The notes: generated from the sequence alone by a model not told the origin. 64,000 nucleotides of DNA from an uncultured Acidobacteriota bacterium (GCA_963741905.1 CAVUJZ010000002.1:8599-72598); one strand, 5' to 3'; numbered from the stretch's first letter, positions 1 through 63,614 are shown. A program made the numbers and translations.

Positions 1-3000
1 TCACCGACCAGTTGCTGGTGTCGGCTCCCGGGGTCGGATCCAGCGCGAAGGTGAGCTGTGCCGTGGCGTCGGGGCAGAAGCTGCCACCGGTCATCGTCGC
101 GGTCGGCACGTTGATGCTGGCCACCGCATTGAGCGTGGACGTGAAGGCGCAGCCGTTCGCGTCGGTCAGGACCACGAAGTAGGTGCGGGTCCGAGCTCCG
201 GTGCTCACACCGCTCGGCGTCACCGTGCGGGTATAGCTTCCGGGCGGGAAGACTCCGGTGAGTGGCGATCCGAGGTCGACCGGCGGATTGACGCCGTCAT
301 CCTCGTACCAGCGCATCTCGGTGAAGCTGCCGGCGCCACCGGAGATCGAGGCCTTAAGCGTCACTGCGGTGTTGTCGCAGACGGTCTTCGTGAACGATCC
401 ATCATTGAAAGAGACCTCGGCGTACGGCAGCGGGTTGACTGTGAGCGTCGCATCCCGTGCGGTGCGAACCGCCGGCGCCGTCCCGGAGTTGCAGGCGTCG
501 ATCGCCACGGCCCGGAACGTCGCGTTGTCGGAAGGGGTCACCCCGGTCAGAACCAGCTCACTGGTCCAGGAGCCGCCTCCGTTGTCTGTGTTGGTAATGG
601 TGTACGCCGCGCCGGTGGTGAGATTTCCACTGGATGATCCGGCTCCCATCGAGGGCTCGATATTGGTGCCGTCCTGCCGCCAGAGGAAGGTCGTTCCGGA
701 CGGGTTGTTCAGATCGTCGCTCTGGACGTCATAGGTGTAGGTGACCGTGCTGCCGTCACAGGAGGTCTGATTCGCCGGCGCACTCACCACGGCCGGGTCA
801 TCGACGAGGTCGACGGTGGCCGAATCGGATGCCGTGCATCCGCCATTCGCCACGTCGACATTGATGATCACGCTCGAGGTCGGCTGGTCATCGGCCTGAA
901 TGGTGATGCTGGCCGAGGTCGAGGGGCTGCCACTGGTCGCATCGCCGTTGCTGCTGCCGGTGATGGTGCCCCCGGTCACCGTCCAGGTGTAGGACGCGCC
1001 GAGGCTCGGCGGAACGCTGGCGGTGAAGCTTGCCAGCGGGCAGACCTGGCTGTTGGACACGCTGGTGGTCACGCCCGCGGAAACCGGAGGGTTCACGGTC
1101 ACGGAATCAGACGCACCTGGCGTACCGGCGCAACCCGTCAGGTTGTTGGTCAGACTGGTCACGGTGTAGTTCACCGTCGTCGGGCCGACCGCGCGGTGAA
1201 GGTGAACGTCGTGGACGCGCCACTGACATTCGCTGCAGTCTGAGGTGTAGTGCCATCGGTGACCGTGACCGACCAGTCGCCATTCAAGCCCGAATCGGTC
1301 CGGGTGACGGTAACGCTGACGCTGCCGACCGAGCAGACCGGATCAGGAGTCGCGCTCACCGAGACCGCTGGCACCGGATTGACGTTCACGCTCTGGGTGA
1401 GCGTGCTGGTGCAGCCCGAGCCGTTGGTGATGTCGACCGAGAAGTCGACCGTTCCACCCGCCGCGGCGGTGACGTCGTAAGTGATCGAGCCACCGTTGGT
1501 GGGGCTGGTGATCGTGCCACGGAGGTGATGGTCCAGGAGGTCACGCTCCAACCGCCCGTATTGAGCGATGCCGTCGCTCCCGTCGCACTTTCACAGACGT
1601 CCCCCGCCACGATCGTGTCGCTGGGATTAACATTGATGTTCGCACTTCCCGTCACCGTGGTGGTGCAACCCGAGCCGTTGGTGACGTCGACCGAGAAGTC
1701 GACCGTTCCGCCGCCCGAGCCGGTCACGTCGTAGGTGATCGAGTCGGCATTGGTCGGGCTGGTGATCGTGCCGCGCCGACGTGATCGACCAGGAGATCAC
1801 GCTCCAGCCACCCGTATTCAGCGATGCCGTCGCTCCGATTGCGCCTTCGCAGACATCCGCCGCAATGACCGTGTCGCTCGGGTTCGCATTGATGTTCGCA
1901 CTTCCGGTGATGGTCGCGGTGCAGCCGGATCCGTTGGTCAGGTCGACCGAAAAGTCGACCGTGCCACCACCGAGGCCGGTCACGTCATAGGTGATCGAAT
2001 CAGCGTTAGTCGCGCTGGTGATCGTGCCGCCCGAGGTGATCGACCAGGAGATCACGCTCCAGCCACCGGTATTGAGAGACGCCGTCGCTCCCGTCGCACC
2101 TTCACAGACGTCCGCCGCCACGATCGTGTCGCTGGGCGGTCCGACGATGTTCACGCTGCCGGTGACGGTGGCCGTGCAGCCGGAGCCGTTGGTGATGTCG
2201 GCCGAGAAATCGACCGTTCCACCGGCCGAGCCGGTCACGTCGTAGGTGATCGAGTCGGTATTGGTGGCGCTGGTGATCGTGCCACCCGACGTGATGGTCC
2301 AGGAGATCACACTCCAGCCACCGGTATTGAGAGACGCCGTCGCGCCTGTCGCTCCGACACACACGTCGGAGGCAACGATGCTGTCGACGGGATTGGCATT
2401 GATGTTCGCACTCCCGAGGATCGTCGCGGTGCAACCCGCGGCGTTGGTCACGTCGACCGAGAAGTCGACCGTCCCACCGCCGGAACCGGTCACGTCGTAG
2501 GTGATCGAATCACCGTTGGTCGGACCTGTGATCGTCCCGCCGGAAGTGATCGTCCAGGAGGTGACACTCCATCCGCCCGTATTGAGGGACGCTATCGCGC
2601 CCGTCGCACCCTCGCAAACATCCGCCGCCACGATTGTATCGCTCGGGGCGGTGTTGATGTTCGCACTTCCCGTGACGGTAGCCATGCAGCCTGCCCCGTT
2701 GGTCAGGTCGATCGAGAAGTCGACCGTCCCACCGCCGGAACCGGTCACGTCGTAGGTGATCGAGTCACCGTTCGTCGGGCCGGTGATCGTCCCGCCCGAG
2801 GTGATGGTCCAGGCGATGACCGACCAACCTCCGGTATTCAGAGACGCCGTCGCACCCGTCGCTCCTTCGCAGACGTCGGCCGCCACGATCGTATCGCTCG
2901 GATTGGCGTTGATGTTCGCACTGGCAGTCACCGTGGTGGTGCAGCCCGAGCCGTTGGTGATGTTCACCGAAAAGTCGACGGTTCCACCGCCGGAACCGGT

Positions 3001-4362
3001 CACGTCATAGGTGATCGAGTTCCCGTTCGCCGCGCTGGTGATCGTCCCGCCCGAGGTGATGGTCCAGGCGATGACCGACCAACCTCCGGTATTCAGAGAC
3101 GCCGTCGCACCCGTCGCTCCTTCGCAGACGTCGGCCGCCACGATCGTGTCGGCCGGGGTCGCATCGACATCGATGAACGTCGTGTCGGTTCCGACACACC
3201 CAGTAGCGTTAGTGACGGTTACGCGATAGTAGGTGGGCGTCAGGGGTGTTTTGGTGATCGTCTGACCGGTGTCGCCGGTCGGGGTGAAGGTGACGTTGTC
3301 CGGCGAGGACTCCCACACATAGCCGGAGTACACCCCGGCGTCGAGAGTGATCGAGCTGCCCTGGCAGGCCGGGTTGGTTCCGGCGGTGAGGGTGATCGAT
3401 GGTGTCGGGTTGGCGTTGACCGTCAGCTCCGCAGGGGCGCTGACCGCCTGCGTGGAGGACCCGCAGGCATCGCGAACCCGCAGACGGTACTGGTTGCCGC
3501 TCATTCCGGCAGTGACGTTACTCAGCGTCAGCGTATTCGTCGTGGCCCCCGAGATTTGGGGCCCGTTGGAGATCGCACCACTCCCGACCAGAAGCCACTG
3601 ATAACTGAGGCTCGCCGATTCGGGATCGGTCGCGCTCGCCGTGAAGACCACCGTCCCCCCCTCGCAGGAGCCGACTGACCGGCCGGATCTGCGTGTGATC
3701 GACGGCGCCTCGTTCACCGTCACCGCGAAGCCTGCTGACGCAGCCGACGCACAGCCGCCGTCGGTTACGACGACGGTGTAGGTTCCCTCGCTACTCGCGC
3801 TCGAGGTTGCCGTGTAATTCGCGTTGCTGTCGCCATCGCTCACCGGGGTTCCGTCGAGGTACCACTGGTAGGTCTGGCCTAAGAGTAGGTACCGCTCGGG
3901 AGCGGCGGTCAGGCGAGATCGAATCGCCTCGCAGACGCTGCTGGTCCCGGTGATCTGAGGCGTCGCCGGAACTGGGTTGACCGTGATGTCGCGGCGGCGT
4001 CGGTGAACCCGGCGGTTCATGCTGGCAGCCGCCGGCATCCACGATCTTGGTGATGCTGTGAGCGGTACGGAGACCGGTTGCCGTCGGAGTGACACTGAAC
4101 GTGTAGTTCAGGCGGACGGTATGGTCGTCGGAAGCCCGTCCGGGATTCCCTGCGTCGCCGGATCCCACGTCACAGTAAATGGTGCCGTTCCCTCGGGAAC
4201 ACGAGCGTCAGATTCACCGCCTCGCCATCACAGATCTGACTGCGCTCTCCGTGAAGTGATACTGACCTGGGCTGCGGGTTCACCGTCAGAGTGGCGATGT
4301 CCGAGGTCACGTACCGCACTCGTCGGCATGATCACGATGATAGAACTGCCAGCCGTCAGCGA
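1..4362 (-). pseudogene. Distal part of a giant secreted repeat adhesin (Ig-like ~85-aa tandem domains). The frame is broken many times, and the 3' end lies beyond position 1.
   Basis: The minus-strand translation is domain-like across the whole interval but switches frame repeatedly, near 1180, 1500-1560, 1770, 4000-4100, and many times in 4100-4620. ORF 1627..4095 holds six repeats of DTIVAADVCEGATGATASLNTGGWSV...SITYDVTGSGGGTVDFSV..NGSGC. YQWY and LTVNP Ig-like motifs are present. My own translation of 1-1170 (minus) stays open to the window edge. Confidence 0.6.
1390..3170 (-). repeat. About 7 tandem copies of a 255-bp (85-codon) coding repeat inside the adhesin gene
   Basis: Unit boundaries fall at 1481, 1735, 1991, 2246, 2501, 2756 and 3011. 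Spacing is 255 bp, except 254 and 256 bp where single-nt indels break the frame. The units are near-identical at the DNA level. Confidence 0.85.
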
Positions 4363-11605: not shown

Positions 11606-12281
11606 CAGCGCGCGAGCGCGCGCCTCGCGAGTGGTGACCGGCCTGATTGTTCTGACCGTCGGTCTGCTGTTCCTTGGCGATCAGATGGGCGTGCTGCACG
11701 CGGAGAACTGGTTCGACTACTGGCCGGTCATTCTCATCGCGATCGGGCTGAGTCACCTGGTGGGGGGCTCTCTGATCGGTGGCGCCATCTGGCTGGCGAT
11801 CGGTGGCGTCTTTCTGATGCGGAACCTCGGTTGGACCGAGCTGGGATTCCGGGATCTGTGGGCCTTCTGGCCACTGCTGATCAGCTGGGTCGGAGGGGTT
11901 CTCGTCTTTCAATCGCTCACGGGGGACCGGAGAAATCGGGGGAACGATTCTGCACAGACGTTCAATGCGGTCGCGGTGATGGCGGGGAACCGGCGGACCA
12001 GCAGTTCGTCCGATTTCCTCGGAGGTGATGCCACCGCGATCATGGGCGGCTGCGAGATCGACCTTCGCTCCGCCACCATTGCCGGGAGCGAAGCAGTGAT
12101 CGACGTGATCGCGTTCTGGGGCGGGATCGAGATCCGGGTGCCGTCGGACTGGACCGTGGAAGGACGGGTCACGCCGGTTCTGGGCGGATACGAGGATCGG
12201 TCCGTGGCGCCCGCCGTACCTCGTCAGCGGCTGATCATCCGGGGAACCGCGGTGATGGGAGGAATCGAGGTTCGCAACTGA
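11589..12281 (+). CDS. LiaF-like (DUF2154-type) membrane protein, intact paralog
   Basis: TM segments are followed by GGCEIDLRSATIAGSEAVIDVIAFWGGIEIRVPSDWTVEGRVTPVLGGYEDRS...LIIRGTAVMGGIEVRN. The start is taken at ATG 11589 (MRKRADSARA). Confidence 0.65.
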   Translation: MRKRADSARARASRVVTGLIVLTVGLLFLGDQMGVLHAENWFDYWPVILIAIGLSHLVGGSLIGGAIWLAIGGVFLMRNLGWTELGFRDLWAFWPLLISWVGGVLVFQSLTGDRRNRGNDSAQTFNAVAVMAGNRRTSSSSDFLGGDATAIMGGCEIDLRSATIAGSEAVIDVIAFWGGIEIRVPSDWTVEGRVTPVLGGYEDRSVAPAVPRQRLIIRGTAVMGGIEVRN

Positions 12282-13361
12282 TGCATCCAATTCTCGCCCG
12301 ACGTGATCGGTTGGCTGCATGGCTGATCTTCATCCTGCTGGTTGCGGCTCTCCTGACCTGGGCCTTGATGATCAGCCGCAGCATCGAGTTGCAGCCGGCG
12401 GTCCTGCTGGTCCTGCTGCCGACTGTGATGTTTGCGCCGATGGGGCTTTCCACCTGGTACTCCTGCAGATCGCTTCCTCTCGAGACCACCTCGCCTGCCC
12501 GGATCATCACCAGTCATGCGCTCGGTGCCGCGGTGGCTTCGGGACTCTGGCTGGTGATCTGGCGCGGCTGGCTGACTCTGCTCCGTCACTGGGGACTGCA
12601 GGGGCTGGACGAACTGCCGCCGCTGGGCGTGGCGCTTCAGTTCCTCTTTACATTGGGCGTTCTTCTTTACCTTCTGTCGGTCGGCGGTGCACTACCTGAT
12701 CCTCGCGTTCGAGGCCTCGCGGGAGGCGGAGGAGCGGGCACTGGAATACCGGATTCTCGCGCGCGAGGCGGAGCTGAAGGCATTCAAGTCTCAGATCGAC
12801 CCCCACTTCCTCTTCAACAGCCTCAATTCGATCAGCGCACTTTGTGGCGTTCGCCCCGCCGATGCGCGATCGATGTCCCAGCGACTTGCCTCCTTCCTCC
12901 GCAGCAGTCTCCGGCTCGGAGGAAGAAACCGGATCCCTCTTGCGGAAGAGCTCGAACTGGTGGATGTCTACCTCTCGATTGAACAGGTCCGCTTCGGTTC
13001 GCGCCTGCGCGTCGAGAAGGACGTCGATCCCTCGTGCGCCGACTGTGCCGTCCCCCCCCTGATCCTTCAGCCTCTCGTGGAGAATGCGGTGCGCCACGGC
13101 ATCGCCTCGCTGATCGACGGGGGCACGGTGTCCATCTCCGCGAGCCGGACGGCCACTCATCTGATCGTGGTGGTGGAAAATGACTATGATCCCGAGGAGC
13201 GTTCCTCCACGGGCGAGGGAATCGGAATGGAGAATGTCCGCGGACGACTCAGGACCAGCTTCGACGAACGAGCGGTCTTTCTCGCTCAACCGCAGGACGG
13301 AAGGTTTCGGGTGGAGCTCCGCATTCCCTGCGATCAGGCCACGGAGGGTGGAGACAGATGA
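12281..13361 (+). CDS. LytS/YehU-type sensor histidine kinase (membrane N-terminus), with a frame break near 12670-12690
   Basis: ORF 12281..12982 gives the TM-rich N-terminus. ORF 12687..13361 gives the His_kinase-type H box (QIDPHFLFNSLNSI) and ATPase N box (LILQPLVENAVRHG). The two ORFs differ in frame by 1 nt. Confidence 0.75.
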
Positions 13362-14107
13362 ATGAGGCCAGCGCACGGACGATCCGAGCCATTCTGGTGG
13401 ACGACGAGGAGCTCGCCCGCGGAATTCTCCGGGAGCTCCTTCAGGCTCACGAGGACTTCGAGATCATCGCGGAATGCCGGAACGGCTTCGAGGCGGTCAA
13501 GGCGGTCAGCGATCACGATCCCGATCTCCTCTTCCTGGACATTCAGATGCCCAAACTCGACGGGTTCGAAGTCCTGGAGCTTCTCGACCGGAAGCCGATT
13601 GTCGTCTTTGTGACGGCTTACGACGAGTACGCCATTCGCGCGTTCGAGGTTCATGCCGCCGACTACCTGCTCAAGCCGTTCAGCTCGGAACGATTCGGAG
13701 ATGTCCTCGACCACGTTCGGGAGCGGTTTGCGGCGCGTACGCCCCAGCCGCTGCAGGCGGTCTCGCGCGAGGCGCGAAGCGGGCCGCTGCAGCGCATTCT
13801 GGTTCGGGATGGGAGTGAGATCGAGGTCCTTCCGATCGCACGGCTGGACTACGTCGAGGCACAGGACGACGGCGTCGTTCTGGTCTCCGGCGAAAAGCGG
13901 CTGCGCAAGCAGCAGCCGCTCGGGGATCTCGAACGGATGCTCGACGCCTCCCGCTTCATCCGGATTCACCGGTCCTACATTCTGAATGTGGATCGCCTCG
14001 ACCGGGTGGAGCTCTACGCGAAAGACAGCCGGATTGCGATCCTCAAGGATGGCACCCGGCTGCCGATCAGCCGCACCGGCTACGGCAGACTGCGTGCGCT
14101 GCTCTAA
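13358..14107 (+). CDS. LytTR-family response regulator
   Basis: It has a receiver domain (AILVDDEELAR...LLFLDIQMPKLDGFEV) and a LytTR DNA-binding domain (FIRIHRSYILNVDRL). It overlaps the kinase stop by 4 nt. Confidence 0.85.
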   Translation: MNEASARTIRAILVDDEELARGILRELLQAHEDFEIIAECRNGFEAVKAVSDHDPDLLFLDIQMPKLDGFEVLELLDRKPIVVFVTAYDEYAIRAFEVHAADYLLKPFSSERFGDVLDHVRERFAARTPQPLQAVSREARSGPLQRILVRDGSEIEVLPIARLDYVEAQDDGVVLVSGEKRLRKQQPLGDLERMLDASRFIRIHRSYILNVDRLDRVELYAKDSRIAILKDGTRLPISRTGYGRLRALL

Positions 14108-14123: not shown

Positions 14124-14312
14124 TCAGACCTTGTCCGGTGGAGCGGGGCTCTGCCGGCCTTCCTTCCGCTGGTCCTGAAATTCACGCCGGACCCGCCTCT
14201 GGTCCTCACGAAGCCTTTCGCGCTGCTGGGACTGGACGATCTCCTCTCCCTGGCGTTCCCGCCCGTGAGAGTGCTCGTAACGATCCTTGTTGACGTTGTT
14301 TTTCTTTCCCAT
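14124..14312 (-). CDS. Small highly charged hypothetical protein (62 aa)
   Basis: The ATG is preceded by GAGGT. Codon usage is consistent with its neighbours. I recognise no homology. Confidence 0.35.
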   Translation of the reverse strand: MGKKNNVNKDRYEHSHGRERQGEEIVQSQQRERLREDQRRVRREFQDQRKEGRQSPAPPDKV

Positions 14313-14635
14313 ACCTCGGTTCTTTGCGAGCGACGTGCCGTCAGGCCGGAGACGCTTCAGTCCGGAAACACGGCCACAGCCGCCCCGGGGTCATGTCTGC
14401 TCCCATGGCGGCCGGCGACAGGGAGGTTGGCCTTCTCATTCTCATTTCCAAAGGGAGCCGCAACGTGCTGAAGAGGCTGCGGTGCGGGCGGGGCGTGCGG
14501 TGCATCGCACCGCTTTCGTTGAAGGTGCCACGGAGCCGCGAGGGCGACATTCAACGAAAGCGGCGCGCTGGCGCCGCACTTCAAAGCGGGCCTCAACGTG
14601 CTGAAGAGGCTTCAATACGGGCGCCGTTGAACGGT

Positions 14636-15098
14636 TCAGGATGACGGATTCAACGTGTCCCTCAAGCGCTCGAGCTGTTCGGTGGGATAGCTCCGGGCAT
14701 TCACGCTGGCATGCGCTTCCCGGATCTTCCCGGTCTTCTCCGATGAGGTACGCAATTCGTTGTGCGTATTCGTCGGAGGCAGACTCGCAGGCGCCATAGG
14801 CGAGTCCGATGGCGTGGTCCACATCCGGCAGAAGAGAGAAGGGGAAGTGGTATTTCTCCGCGAATTTTCTCTGTTCCTCGGGCGGGTCGAAGCTGCACCC
14901 GAGAATCACCGTGTTCAGCGCGGAAAAGTCGTCGTGGAGGTCCCGGAACCCGGAACCTTCCGCGGTTCAGCCGGGGGTGTCGGCCCTGGGAAAGAACCAG
15001 AGAATCACATTCCGACCTCGAAGGTCGGCGAGATGCACCCGATCTCCCCGATGATCCTGAAGGTCGAAATCGGGGGCGGAATCGCCAGGCTTCAGCAT
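14636..15098 (-). CDS. bcp: PrxQ/Bcp-type peroxiredoxin with an in-frame TGA (candidate selenocysteine) at the peroxidatic position, plus one frame break near 14729-14733
   Basis: AAGGAG lies 7 nt upstream of ATG 15098. The protein reads MLKPGDSAPDFDLQDH...NVILWFFPRADTPG-[TGA 14967-14969]-TAEGSGFRDLHDDFSALNTVILGCSFDPPEEQRKFAEKYHFPFSLLPD.... ORFs 14967..15158 and 14442..14909 are in the same frame (249 nt apart). The C-terminus (GKIREAHASVNARSYPTEQLERL) is in the frame of ORF 14636..14824. Confidence 0.75.
14936..14961 (-). promoter_or_regulatory. SECIS-like mRNA hairpin 5 nt downstream of the in-frame UGA
   Basis: The RNA is GGAAGGUUCCGG-GUU-CCGGGACCUCC. It forms 11 pairs including one G.U, has one bulged A, and has a GU-containing apical loop about 20 nt after the UGA. 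Confidence 0.55.
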
Positions 15099-15162
15099 GC
15101 CGTGCTCCTTTCGGATCAGTGACTGGTAAAGATAACGGAGGACGCCTCCGAGGGACATTCCG

Positions 15163-62602: not shown

Positions 62603-63614
62603 TCAGCTCTTGACCTTTGCGATGTAGCGGATCAGGTCCACCACCCGGTTCGAATACCCATACTCGTTGTCGTACCACGACAGAACCTTGTGCATCTTCG
62701 GGTCGACCGAGCGGGTGAAGGTGGTATCGACGATCGATGAATAGGGGCTGTTGTTGAAATCGATCGACACCAGCTGCTCCTCCGAGCAGGTGAGGATGCC
62801 CTTCAGGTCGCCGTCTGCAGCCTTCCGGAGAGCGTCGTTGATCTCCTCCGCGCTGGTTTCCTTCTCGGTGTTGAACACCAGATCCACCAGCGAGACGTTC
62901 GGCGTCGGGACGCGCACCGAGATTCCGTCGAACTTCCCCTTCAGCTCGGGAAGCACCAGACCCACCGCCTTTGCCGCACCGGTGGTGGTCGGAATCATCG
63001 AGAGGCCCGCCGCACGGGCTCGCCGCAGGTCCTTGTGAGGCAGGTCGAGGATGACCTGATCGTTGGTGTACGAGTGGATCGTGGTCATGATGCCGCGGGT
63101 GATGGTGAAGTTCTCGTGAAGCACCCGGGCCATCGGTGCGAGACAGTTCGTGGTGCACGAAGCGTTCGAGATCACCTGGTGCTTCGAAGGGTCGAAGTCC
63201 TTCTCGTTCACCCCCATGCAGACGGTGAGATCGACCTCTTTCCGGGCGCGGAGATCGATCACCTGTTCCACGGTGCCGTGCAGATGCGCCGCGGCCTTGT
63301 CCCGCTGGCGTGAACCGCCCGGTGGACTCCACCACGATCTCCGCCCCAGATCCTCCCAGGGAATCTTCGCGGGATCGGGCGAGGCATAGACCTTGATGTC
63401 TTTCCCGTCGACAGTGATCTTTCCCTCACCGCTGGAGACCTCGTTGGGCAGCGTCCCATGGACCGAGTCGTACTTCAGCAGGTAGGCGAGCGTTGCCGGA
63501 TCCGTCAGATCGTTGACGGCGACGAACTCGACATCCTGAGTATTGTCATGAAGGGCGGCCCGGAGCACATTGCGTCCGATTCGGCCGAATCTCGTTGATT
63601 CCTACGTGTACCAT
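62603..63614 (-). CDS. gap: Glyceraldehyde-3-phosphate dehydrogenase, with at least 5 single-nt indels in the 5' third
   Basis: GGAGGA lies upstream of ATG 63614. The conserved motifs INGFGRIGRNVLRA, VVESTGRFT and VIISAPGK are recoverable only by switching frame near 63590, 63345, 63308 and twice in 63245-63262. The remainder (SNASCTTNCLAP...HSYTNDQ...WYDNEYGYS) is intact. Confidence 0.85.

Follow-up and report, generated by a model that had tools for sequence, protein, structure and literature searches.

A minus-strand locus at positions 14636 to 15098 of the DNA analysed in this work, a stretch of 64,000 nucleotides from an uncultured Acidobacteriota bacterium (GCA_963741905.1, CAVUJZ010000002.1:8599-72598; hereafter the window), is very probably a single gene for a selenocysteine (Sec)-containing peroxiredoxin (Prx) of the PrxQ/Bcp type, as judged from its sequence and from that of its relatives. 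Sec-containing peroxiredoxins have been known as a selenoprotein family since about 2004-2005. In the mechanism that we propose, the UGA at codon 44 would be decoded as Sec instead of acting as a stop, with SelB and Sec-tRNA(Sec) recruited by a hairpin that starts 5 nt after the UGA. From what is known of the family, Sec44 would replace the peroxidatic Cys in a site formed by the P-x3-T-x2-U motif and Arg114, and it would attack peroxides to give a selenenic acid; its recycling would probably depend on an external thiol, for example thioredoxin or a glutaredoxin-type reductant, in a 1-Sec mechanism. The coordinates of the gene and of the features discussed below are collected in Table 1.

Table 1. 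Features of the candidate selenoprotein gene (prx) and of other window loci considered in the text; positions are counted from the first nucleotide of the window.
Feature	Position	Strand	Remarks
Shine-Dalgarno-like AAGGAG	15105..15110	-	6 nt 5' of the ATG at 15098; read from the sequence
Putative prxQ/bcp-type selenoprotein gene	14636..15098	-	Whole gene; 153-aa product after one frameshift repair
prx start codon ATG	15098-15096	-	Followed by 43 codons (ATG included), TGA (predicted Sec) and 109 codons after repair
In-frame TGA (predicted Sec44)	14967..14969	-	Peroxidatic position of P37-x3-T41-x2-U44
SECIS hairpin (predicted)	14936..14961	-	MFE structure; begins 5 nt past the UGA
Hairpin, outer pairs	out to 14964 / 14933	-	Two pairs
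Hairpin, lower stem	14961-14959 / 14938-14936	-	3 bp
Hairpin, bulged A	14958	-	
Hairpin, core helix	14957-14950 / 14946-14939	-	8 bp
Hairpin, apical loop	14949-14947	-	GUU
Cys68 codon	14895-14897	-	In GCSFD
Pro91 codon	14826-14828	-	In LLPD
Catalytic Arg codon (R114)	14757..14759	-	In QRIAYLI; Arg invariant in Sec-type and Cys-type alignments
+1 frameshift, GAC[C]GGG	14732..14733	-	Removal of one base gives YLIGEDGKIREAHASVNARSYPTEQLERL, colinear with orthologues
prx stop codon TGA	14638-14636	-	
Terminator-like GC stem, then TTTCGTTGAA	14560..14577	-	About 60 nt past the prx stop; consensus match only
Mirror of the terminator-like stem	14497-14513	+	
LytS-like sensor kinase gene	12281-13361	+	Frame +2 to +3 near 12657-12685, against a single-ORF orthologue in locus L001
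GAPDH gene	about 63614-62603	-	Extra A at 63592 (AACG[A]GATTC)

Reading frame, protein family and active site

From the ATG at 15098 the minus strand encodes MLKPGDSAPDFDLQDHRGDRVHLADLRGRNVILWFFPRADTPG, then the TGA at 14967-14969 is found, and the same frame resumes with TAEGSGFRDLHDDFSALNTVILGCSFDPPEEQ. The earlier note on this DNA had described the two halves as ORFs 14967..15158 and 14442..14909 of the minus strand, lying in one frame 249 nt apart and separated by a single TGA and 19 sense codons; these coordinates were rechecked and are correct, and translation gave the same peptide across the stop, WFFPRADTPG-(stop)-TAEGSGFRD. The orthologues begin at an equivalent MLxxGD, in agreement with the ATG at 15098. 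It had also been anticipated that annotation would split the gene in two, which is the case for the orthologues in public gene calls, but the window gene lies in three pieces. At the third break ...AQRIAYLIGED continues as REDPGSACQ..., and the +1 frame gives GKIREAHASVNARSYPTEQLERLRDTLNPSS followed by a stop (ORF 14636..14824); the true C-terminus is in this last ORF because of a +1 frameshift at ~14732-14733.

The family searches were carried out with a repaired protein, in which a C was placed at the TGA and the frameshift was removed. This protein matched Pfam AhpC-TSA (PF00578) with an E-value of 4.5e-32 over profile positions 1-123 of 124, and Redoxin (PF08534) with 2.9e-20. The top PDB matches in HMMER alignments were Bcp/PrxQ proteins, 3drn (6.9e-22) followed by 2ywn and 5enu, and in these alignments the stop falls in the column of the peroxidatic Cys (dtpgCT in 5enu, dtpgST in 3drn), as the earlier note had placed it. 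The PxxxTxxC(U) motif and the distal Arg are both present (P37, T41, U44 encoded by the TGA, and R114). The best NCBIfam model was Bcp NF006960 with 102.7 bits, under its cutoff of 140, and PrxQ NF053650 scored 86.7 bits, under a cutoff of 260; with such scores the protein belongs to a divergent Bcp/PrxQ branch, and therefore PGAP would give it no name from either model. The earlier note had cited PrxU of Eubacterium acidaminophilum as a precedent. As an experimentally characterised, thioredoxin-dependent and Sec-containing enzyme, PrxU does establish that such peroxiredoxins exist, but it belongs to another Prx subfamily and is not the closest known selenoprotein: the PrxU model NF040737, with a cutoff of 270, gave only 35.3 bits, and the alignment covered just a part of its 233-residue profile. 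The Bcp-type 'Prx, TxxU' selenoprotein family (COG1225/pfam00578) is the proper reference. By these profile comparisons the predicted protein is a divergent Bcp/PrxQ-type Prx and not a PrxU orthologue.

In a search of 5.8 billion proteins the best full-length matches were Cys-type proteins with 57-59% identity. The Cys-type PrxQ/Bcp proteins (E. coli Bcp, NF006960; Sulfolobus solfataricus Bcp1, 3drn; metagenomic proteins P0001-P0004) share with the window protein their length, the DTPG-x-T-x-EG...FRD helix and the catalytic Thr and Arg, and they differ from it in having TGC or TGT where the window has TGA. The nearest Cys forms mostly carry a Cys five residues after the peroxidatic position (CTxEGC), with Q or K in P0005, P0014 and P0024, whereas the window protein has Ser (UTAEGS).

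The resolving Cys of the C-x4-C arrangement, which is characteristic of atypical 2-Cys PrxQ, is thus missing from the window protein, where Ser49 occupies the +5 position; since 1-Cys Bcp proteins exist, this does not exclude it from the PrxQ/Bcp family. Among 56 Sec forms the +5 residue is Ser in 47, Cys in eight and Thr in one. Because the usual +5 resolving Cys is replaced by Ser, recycling by an external thiol is probable, and a 1-Sec mechanism of this kind seems the most likely route. The proposal in the earlier note that this would be a 1-Sec enzyme is plausible with Ser at +5; on the other side, the protein has two other cysteines, C68 and C104, and a sister Sec group keeps the +5 Cys. 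Most Sec forms have a Cys at +47 (PLLCD) and a few have no other Cys; none is universal. The window protein and loci L001 and L003 have instead a Cys at +24 (GCSFD), and L007 has both. This +24 residue may be a structural or redox Cys that has changed its place. A general role of Cys68 as the relocated resolving Cys was considered and rejected, as it is present in 4 of the 56 Sec forms only.

The TGA codon in related loci and the frameshift of the window copy

The codon that relatives carry at this site, TGA or TGC/TGT, had been named in the earlier note as a check on its reading. TGA was found at the peroxidatic codon in 55 of 55 related loci, distributed over several phyla and obtained from both short-read and long-read assemblies. 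In the protein search, matches shorter than the full-length ones were closer to the window protein: P0075 (92 aa) and P0096 (86 aa) have 65-66% identity, and both begin just past the TGA region. Their contigs (L001 and L002 from ENA, L003 from JGI) encode an AhpC-TSA piece 43 or 63 aa long, then TGA, then the C-terminal fragment; the ENA and JGI gene calls cut these orthologues into 43-/63-aa and 86-/92-aa pieces. Beside the TGA, L001-L003 show synonymous differences (GAC/GAT, ACC/ACA, CCC/CCG and GGC/GGA).

When a single genome of each GTDB species was scanned, 43 loci were obtained, with TGA in 43 of 43; this sample is biased to Sec-type members, given that the Sec-type motif T[IA]EGSGFRD was one of the two patterns used as seeds. 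The titles of 31 of these loci name Thermoanaerobaculia metagenome-assembled genomes (MAGs); the other 12 are a mix of other Acidobacteriota, Latescibacterota, Planctomycetota, Binatia, Thermodesulfobacteriota, Actinomycetota, Rhodospirillaceae, Methylococcaceae and Elusimicrobia. The orthologue is carried by the complete Thermoanaerobaculia chromosomes OY970284.1 and OY970380.1. A metagenome scan seeded with six window peptides that are distant from, and unrelated to, the active site gave 10 relatives, again with TGA in all 10. A degenerate 44-nt pattern found no match in metagenomes, the peptide-seeded metagenome scan returned nothing closer than 60%, and no protein identical to the LytTR neighbour or to the 63-aa N-terminal ORF is on record; no close relative of the source organism was present among the collections searched, and the nearest relative of the window protein has 60-66% identity.

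The layout of the gene is the same in all the relatives but two, 43 codons followed by TGA and by approximately 100-106 codons to the stop; the exceptions are L046, cut by the end of its contig, and L058, with a stop after 72 codons. The 100 or more codons downstream of the TGA are kept at 60-66% identity. In about half of the relatives TGA is also the ordinary terminator of the prx gene, so it still acts as a stop codon in these organisms and no reassignment of the code has taken place. Taken together, the conservation of the TGA, the layout and the TGA stops effectively refute a substitution artefact, a private nonsense mutation and a reassigned code.

The first of these possibilities, a plain Cys peroxiredoxin in which base calling or assembly turned TGC or TGT into TGA, draws some support from the proven errors of the contig, but it would need the same substitution in 55 independent loci sequenced by different methods, and the Cys-type relatives with TGC or TGT have no stable hairpin at this place; we regard it as having practically no chance of being right. 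The earlier note had argued against it on the basis that the errors of this contig are indels. GAPDH was indeed confirmed to have an insertion of one base, and the LytS-like kinase a frameshift. As the orthologues already decide the matter of the TGA, this error-profile argument is not needed.

The GAPDH N-terminus is split over two frames, MVHVGIN and GFGRIGRNVLRA, with the break inside the GxGxxG motif (VGIN|GFGRIGR) at 49 kb from prx. The extra A is almost certainly a contig error, which means that the assembly contains 1-nt insertions. Since it is very unlikely that a GAPDH would in nature have its GxGxxG motif broken, we treated the three breaks, in prx, in the kinase and in GAPDH, as assembly errors rather than gene decay, a view that we hold with high confidence. 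Overlapping same-strand ORF pairs were also considered as a sign of many frameshifts, and this was discarded because most of them are separate genes or spurious frames.

If the frameshift at ~14732 were real, the window copy would be dead: the family would use Sec and this member of it would be a decaying pseudogene. The break occurs in the window copy alone among the 56 sequences (L058 stops early at a different point), and the frameshift in the adjoining kinase gene could mean local decay. Against this, a housekeeping gene 49 kb away has the same type of single-base insertion, which indicates assembly error, and once one base is removed from prx its C-terminus is conserved and fully colinear, both Arg114 and the YP..QL tail are intact, and there are no further lesions. 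A pseudogene is for these reasons improbable, and an intact gene with an assembly error is the reading retained below.

The hairpin downstream of the UGA

The hairpin GGAAGGUUCCGG-GUU-CCGGGACCUCC (14961-14936) that the earlier note had drawn is present in the minimum free energy (MFE) fold with its 11 pairs and its bulged A, and the fold adds two more outer pairs. The strands of the core helix are GGUUCCGG and CCGGGACC, closed by the GUU loop, and the free energy is -20.2 kcal/mol over 45 nt. The bSECIS model, in the form in which a passage of PMC13188914 quotes it, calls for a loop of 3-9 nt with a G within the first two loop positions, an upper stem of 4-16 bp, a distance from the UGA to the loop of 16-37 nt and an MFE of -7.5 kcal/mol or lower. 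The window hairpin falls within all the limits given in that passage: its loop is GUU, with G followed by U, its upper stem has 8 bp, the UGA and the loop are 17 nt apart and the energy is the one mentioned above, so that the likeness to bacterial SECIS elements claimed for it was borne out. With the elements recognised by bSECISearch, such as that of E. coli fdhF, it shares the stem-loop right after the UGA, the small loop with G then U, the 8-bp upper stem, the 17-nt distance and an MFE under the -7.5 kcal/mol limit; it differs in that the loop is a minimal one of 3 nt and the stem lies over the codons that encode the active-site helix (G-S-G-F-R-D), and SelB binding is in this case only predicted. 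No match was obtained from Rfam when the window was scanned at gathering thresholds.

When the 66-nt hairpin region was shuffled preserving dinucleotides, the fold was unexceptional (z -0.87; 37 of 200 shuffles). Such a shuffle is uninformative for GC-rich RNA, and therefore a synonymous-recoding control was used instead, in which the peptide is fixed and the codons are redrawn from the usage of these same genes. Against this null the window hairpin had a z of -3.25, and none of 200 recodings was as stable. For the 56 Sec-type genes the mean MFE was -18.5 kcal/mol compared with -13.1 in the recodings (mean z -1.9), whereas the Cys-type control set, of four genes only (L059-L062), showed no excess stability as a group (z +1.2, +0.1, -1.8 and +2.6). 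The choice of Gly codons points the same way as the recoding test, that is, toward a constraint at the RNA level: within the helix and loop the codons are GGT at +4 (48/56) and GGG at +6 (51/56), while outside them GGC is used at -1 (43/56) and at +23 (40/56).

The earlier note had also proposed a covariance analysis of orthologues, and in this analysis the hairpin proved to be conserved. Pairs and covariation were counted on 45 distinct sequences. Each of the eight core pairs is present in nearly every one of them, and 83% of the cells are paired in the hairpin register compared with 63% at most in any slid register. Most pairs of the helix are invariant and one is clearly compensatory: pair 23-33 is C-G in 36 sequences, G-C in eight and broken in one. 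The switch replaces TCC (Ser) at +5 by TGC (Cys) or AGC (Ser), and is accompanied by a synonymous change of Arg CGG to CGC. The covariation score was 0.064, compared with 0.023 in shuffles, and none of 500 shuffles scored as high. In a rough neighbour-joining tree the G-C sequences, L037/L038 and L051-L058, cluster together, so the switch may be a single evolutionary event. It was observed that L051-L058 keep the +5 resolving Cys (U-TAEG-C), with its TGC in the stem opposite Arg CGC and not CGG, and that L037/L038 have Ser AGC opposite the same CGC.

Six distant members (L036, L039-L042 and L044) do not have the window-type helix. Their hairpin is GCGGAUUC-CGUGAUC-GAAUCCGC, shifted in position, with a 7-nt loop, and encoded by SGFRDRIRD (codons +5 to +13). 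In this second class 92% of the cells are paired, compared with 51% at most when the partners are slid, and it has compensatory changes too, one exchange of C-G to U-A in the upper stem and one more exchange in the lower stem. Its carriers belong to Latescibacterota, Planctomycetota, Thermodesulfobacteriota, Binatia, Rhodospirillaceae and Methylococcaceae.

The machinery for Sec incorporation was searched in the DNA at hand. With E. coli SelA, SelB and SelD as queries, tblastn detected no selA, selB or selD, either in the 64 kb of the window or in the related loci (~0.6 Mb); there are no tRNA genes of any kind in the window and no tRNA-Sec in any related locus. Pfam annotation of ~40 window ORFs, which include two-component sensors, a dap operon, LigD, Lhr helicase, PGK and GAPDH, gave no Sec-machinery domain. 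A GC3-based screen of the window for other TGA-interrupted genes was non-discriminating and did not recover the prx site itself.

The lack of Sec machinery in the DNA searched would fit a gene whose UGA is read through or reassigned to Trp, Gly or Cys without selenium, or terminates translation to leave a 43-residue peptide, with the hairpin as a by-product of EGSGFRD and GC-rich codons; this peptide is conserved too, and RNA rich in GC folds easily. But TGA normally terminates many of these same genes, the conservation extends over the 100 or more codons beyond it (60-66% identity), and the stop sits at the one residue where exchange between Sec and Cys is an established pattern. The hairpin, in addition, is more stable than the recodings of the same peptide, uses atypical Gly codons and contains a compensatory synonymous change. 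We consider a selenium-free reading very unlikely, and decoding of the UGA as Sec remains by far the better account of the locus.

Known selenoproteins and genomic neighbourhood

The Sec-containing Prx (TxxU) is among the most abundant bacterial selenoprotein families, and has been classified under COG1225 (PMC1088965) and pfam00578 (PMC2398784). There were 43 such genes in the Sargasso Sea data (PMC1088965) and 253 in the GOS data (PMC2398784), a genome survey counted 91 genes in 78 genomes (PMC5029168), and the family is included in a 2026 review (PMC13188914). Multiple Cys-to-Sec conversions have been reported for it, and the several separate Sec groups in our rough tree agree with this. 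The window protein shares with the Bcp-type 'Prx, TxxU' family the AhpC/TSA fold, COG1225 and Sec in the place of the peroxidatic Cys of PxxxTxxU, as well as a SECIS directly 3' of the UGA inside the coding sequence and widespread Cys homologues; the likeness is drawn from published descriptions, and the relatives are here mostly Thermoanaerobaculia (Acidobacteriota). Some Acidobacteria have been reported to have selenoproteins at the phylum level (PMC1794560), and in our literature search Thermoanaerobaculia were nowhere mentioned together with selenocysteine.

The window gene adds a member to an established Sec Prx family and changes no concept. What it adds is modest: the spread in Thermoanaerobaculia, the fact that the inspected gene calls still split the gene, and the way in which the SECIS stem and the codon of the resolving Cys bear on each other. 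A known selenoprotein family is in this way extended to a lineage for which no Sec literature was found, and the gene offers a clean example of a SECIS that constrains active-site codons. With regard to a broader proposal we are evenly divided: that Sec-PrxQ is a widespread selenoenzyme of Thermoanaerobaculia, a soil class, present in at least 31 species-level MAGs and fragmented in the inspected calls; that its SECIS lies in the codons of the active-site helix, where pairing freezes EGSGFRD and couples the +5 Cys (TCC vs TGC) to a compensatory, synonymous Arg change; and that distant branches evolved a second, shifted SECIS. As gene calling leaves these genes in two or three pieces in dozens of Acidobacteriota MAGs, inventories of peroxide defence and selenium use in these soil bacteria are incomplete. 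Such genes could be rescued with the signature DTPG-TGA-ACN-NNN-GAR-GGT-TCC-GGG-TTC-CGG-GAC.

Upstream of prx, between its start (15098) and the stop (15163) of a gene for a 1331-aa PAS/His-kinase hybrid, there is a terminator-like stem on the minus strand at 15136-15150, CGGAGGCGTCCTCCG followed by a T-rich tail, an indication that prx has a transcript of its own. No promoter of the sigma-70 type was identified. On the other side of the gene, 500 bp separate the prx stop from the end of the LytTR gene. This gap holds a 24-nt inverted repeat (14503-14526 / 14547-14570) that contains two terminator-like stems, mirror images of one another and both with TTTCGTTGAA after them, and that is flanked by a 42-nt direct repeat (14449-14490 / 14582-14623) whose copies are 83% identical. 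The region 14449-14623 could act as a terminator in both directions or be a small repeat element. A highly charged ORF of 62 aa (MGKKNNVNKDRYEHSHGRERQGEE...) is found at 14124-14312 of the minus strand, with the LytTR gene on one side and the prx terminator region on the other. The LytTR regulator (13358-14107) lies downstream of the LytS-like kinase, and in L001, as in the window, prx is paired with a convergent LytTR/LytS set.

Elsewhere in the window, a 255-bp tandem repeat at 1396-3151 (6.9 copies, 81% matches) is found in an 822-aa ORF (1627..4095, minus strand) with weak PKD-like matches, which looks like a repeat-domain surface protein.
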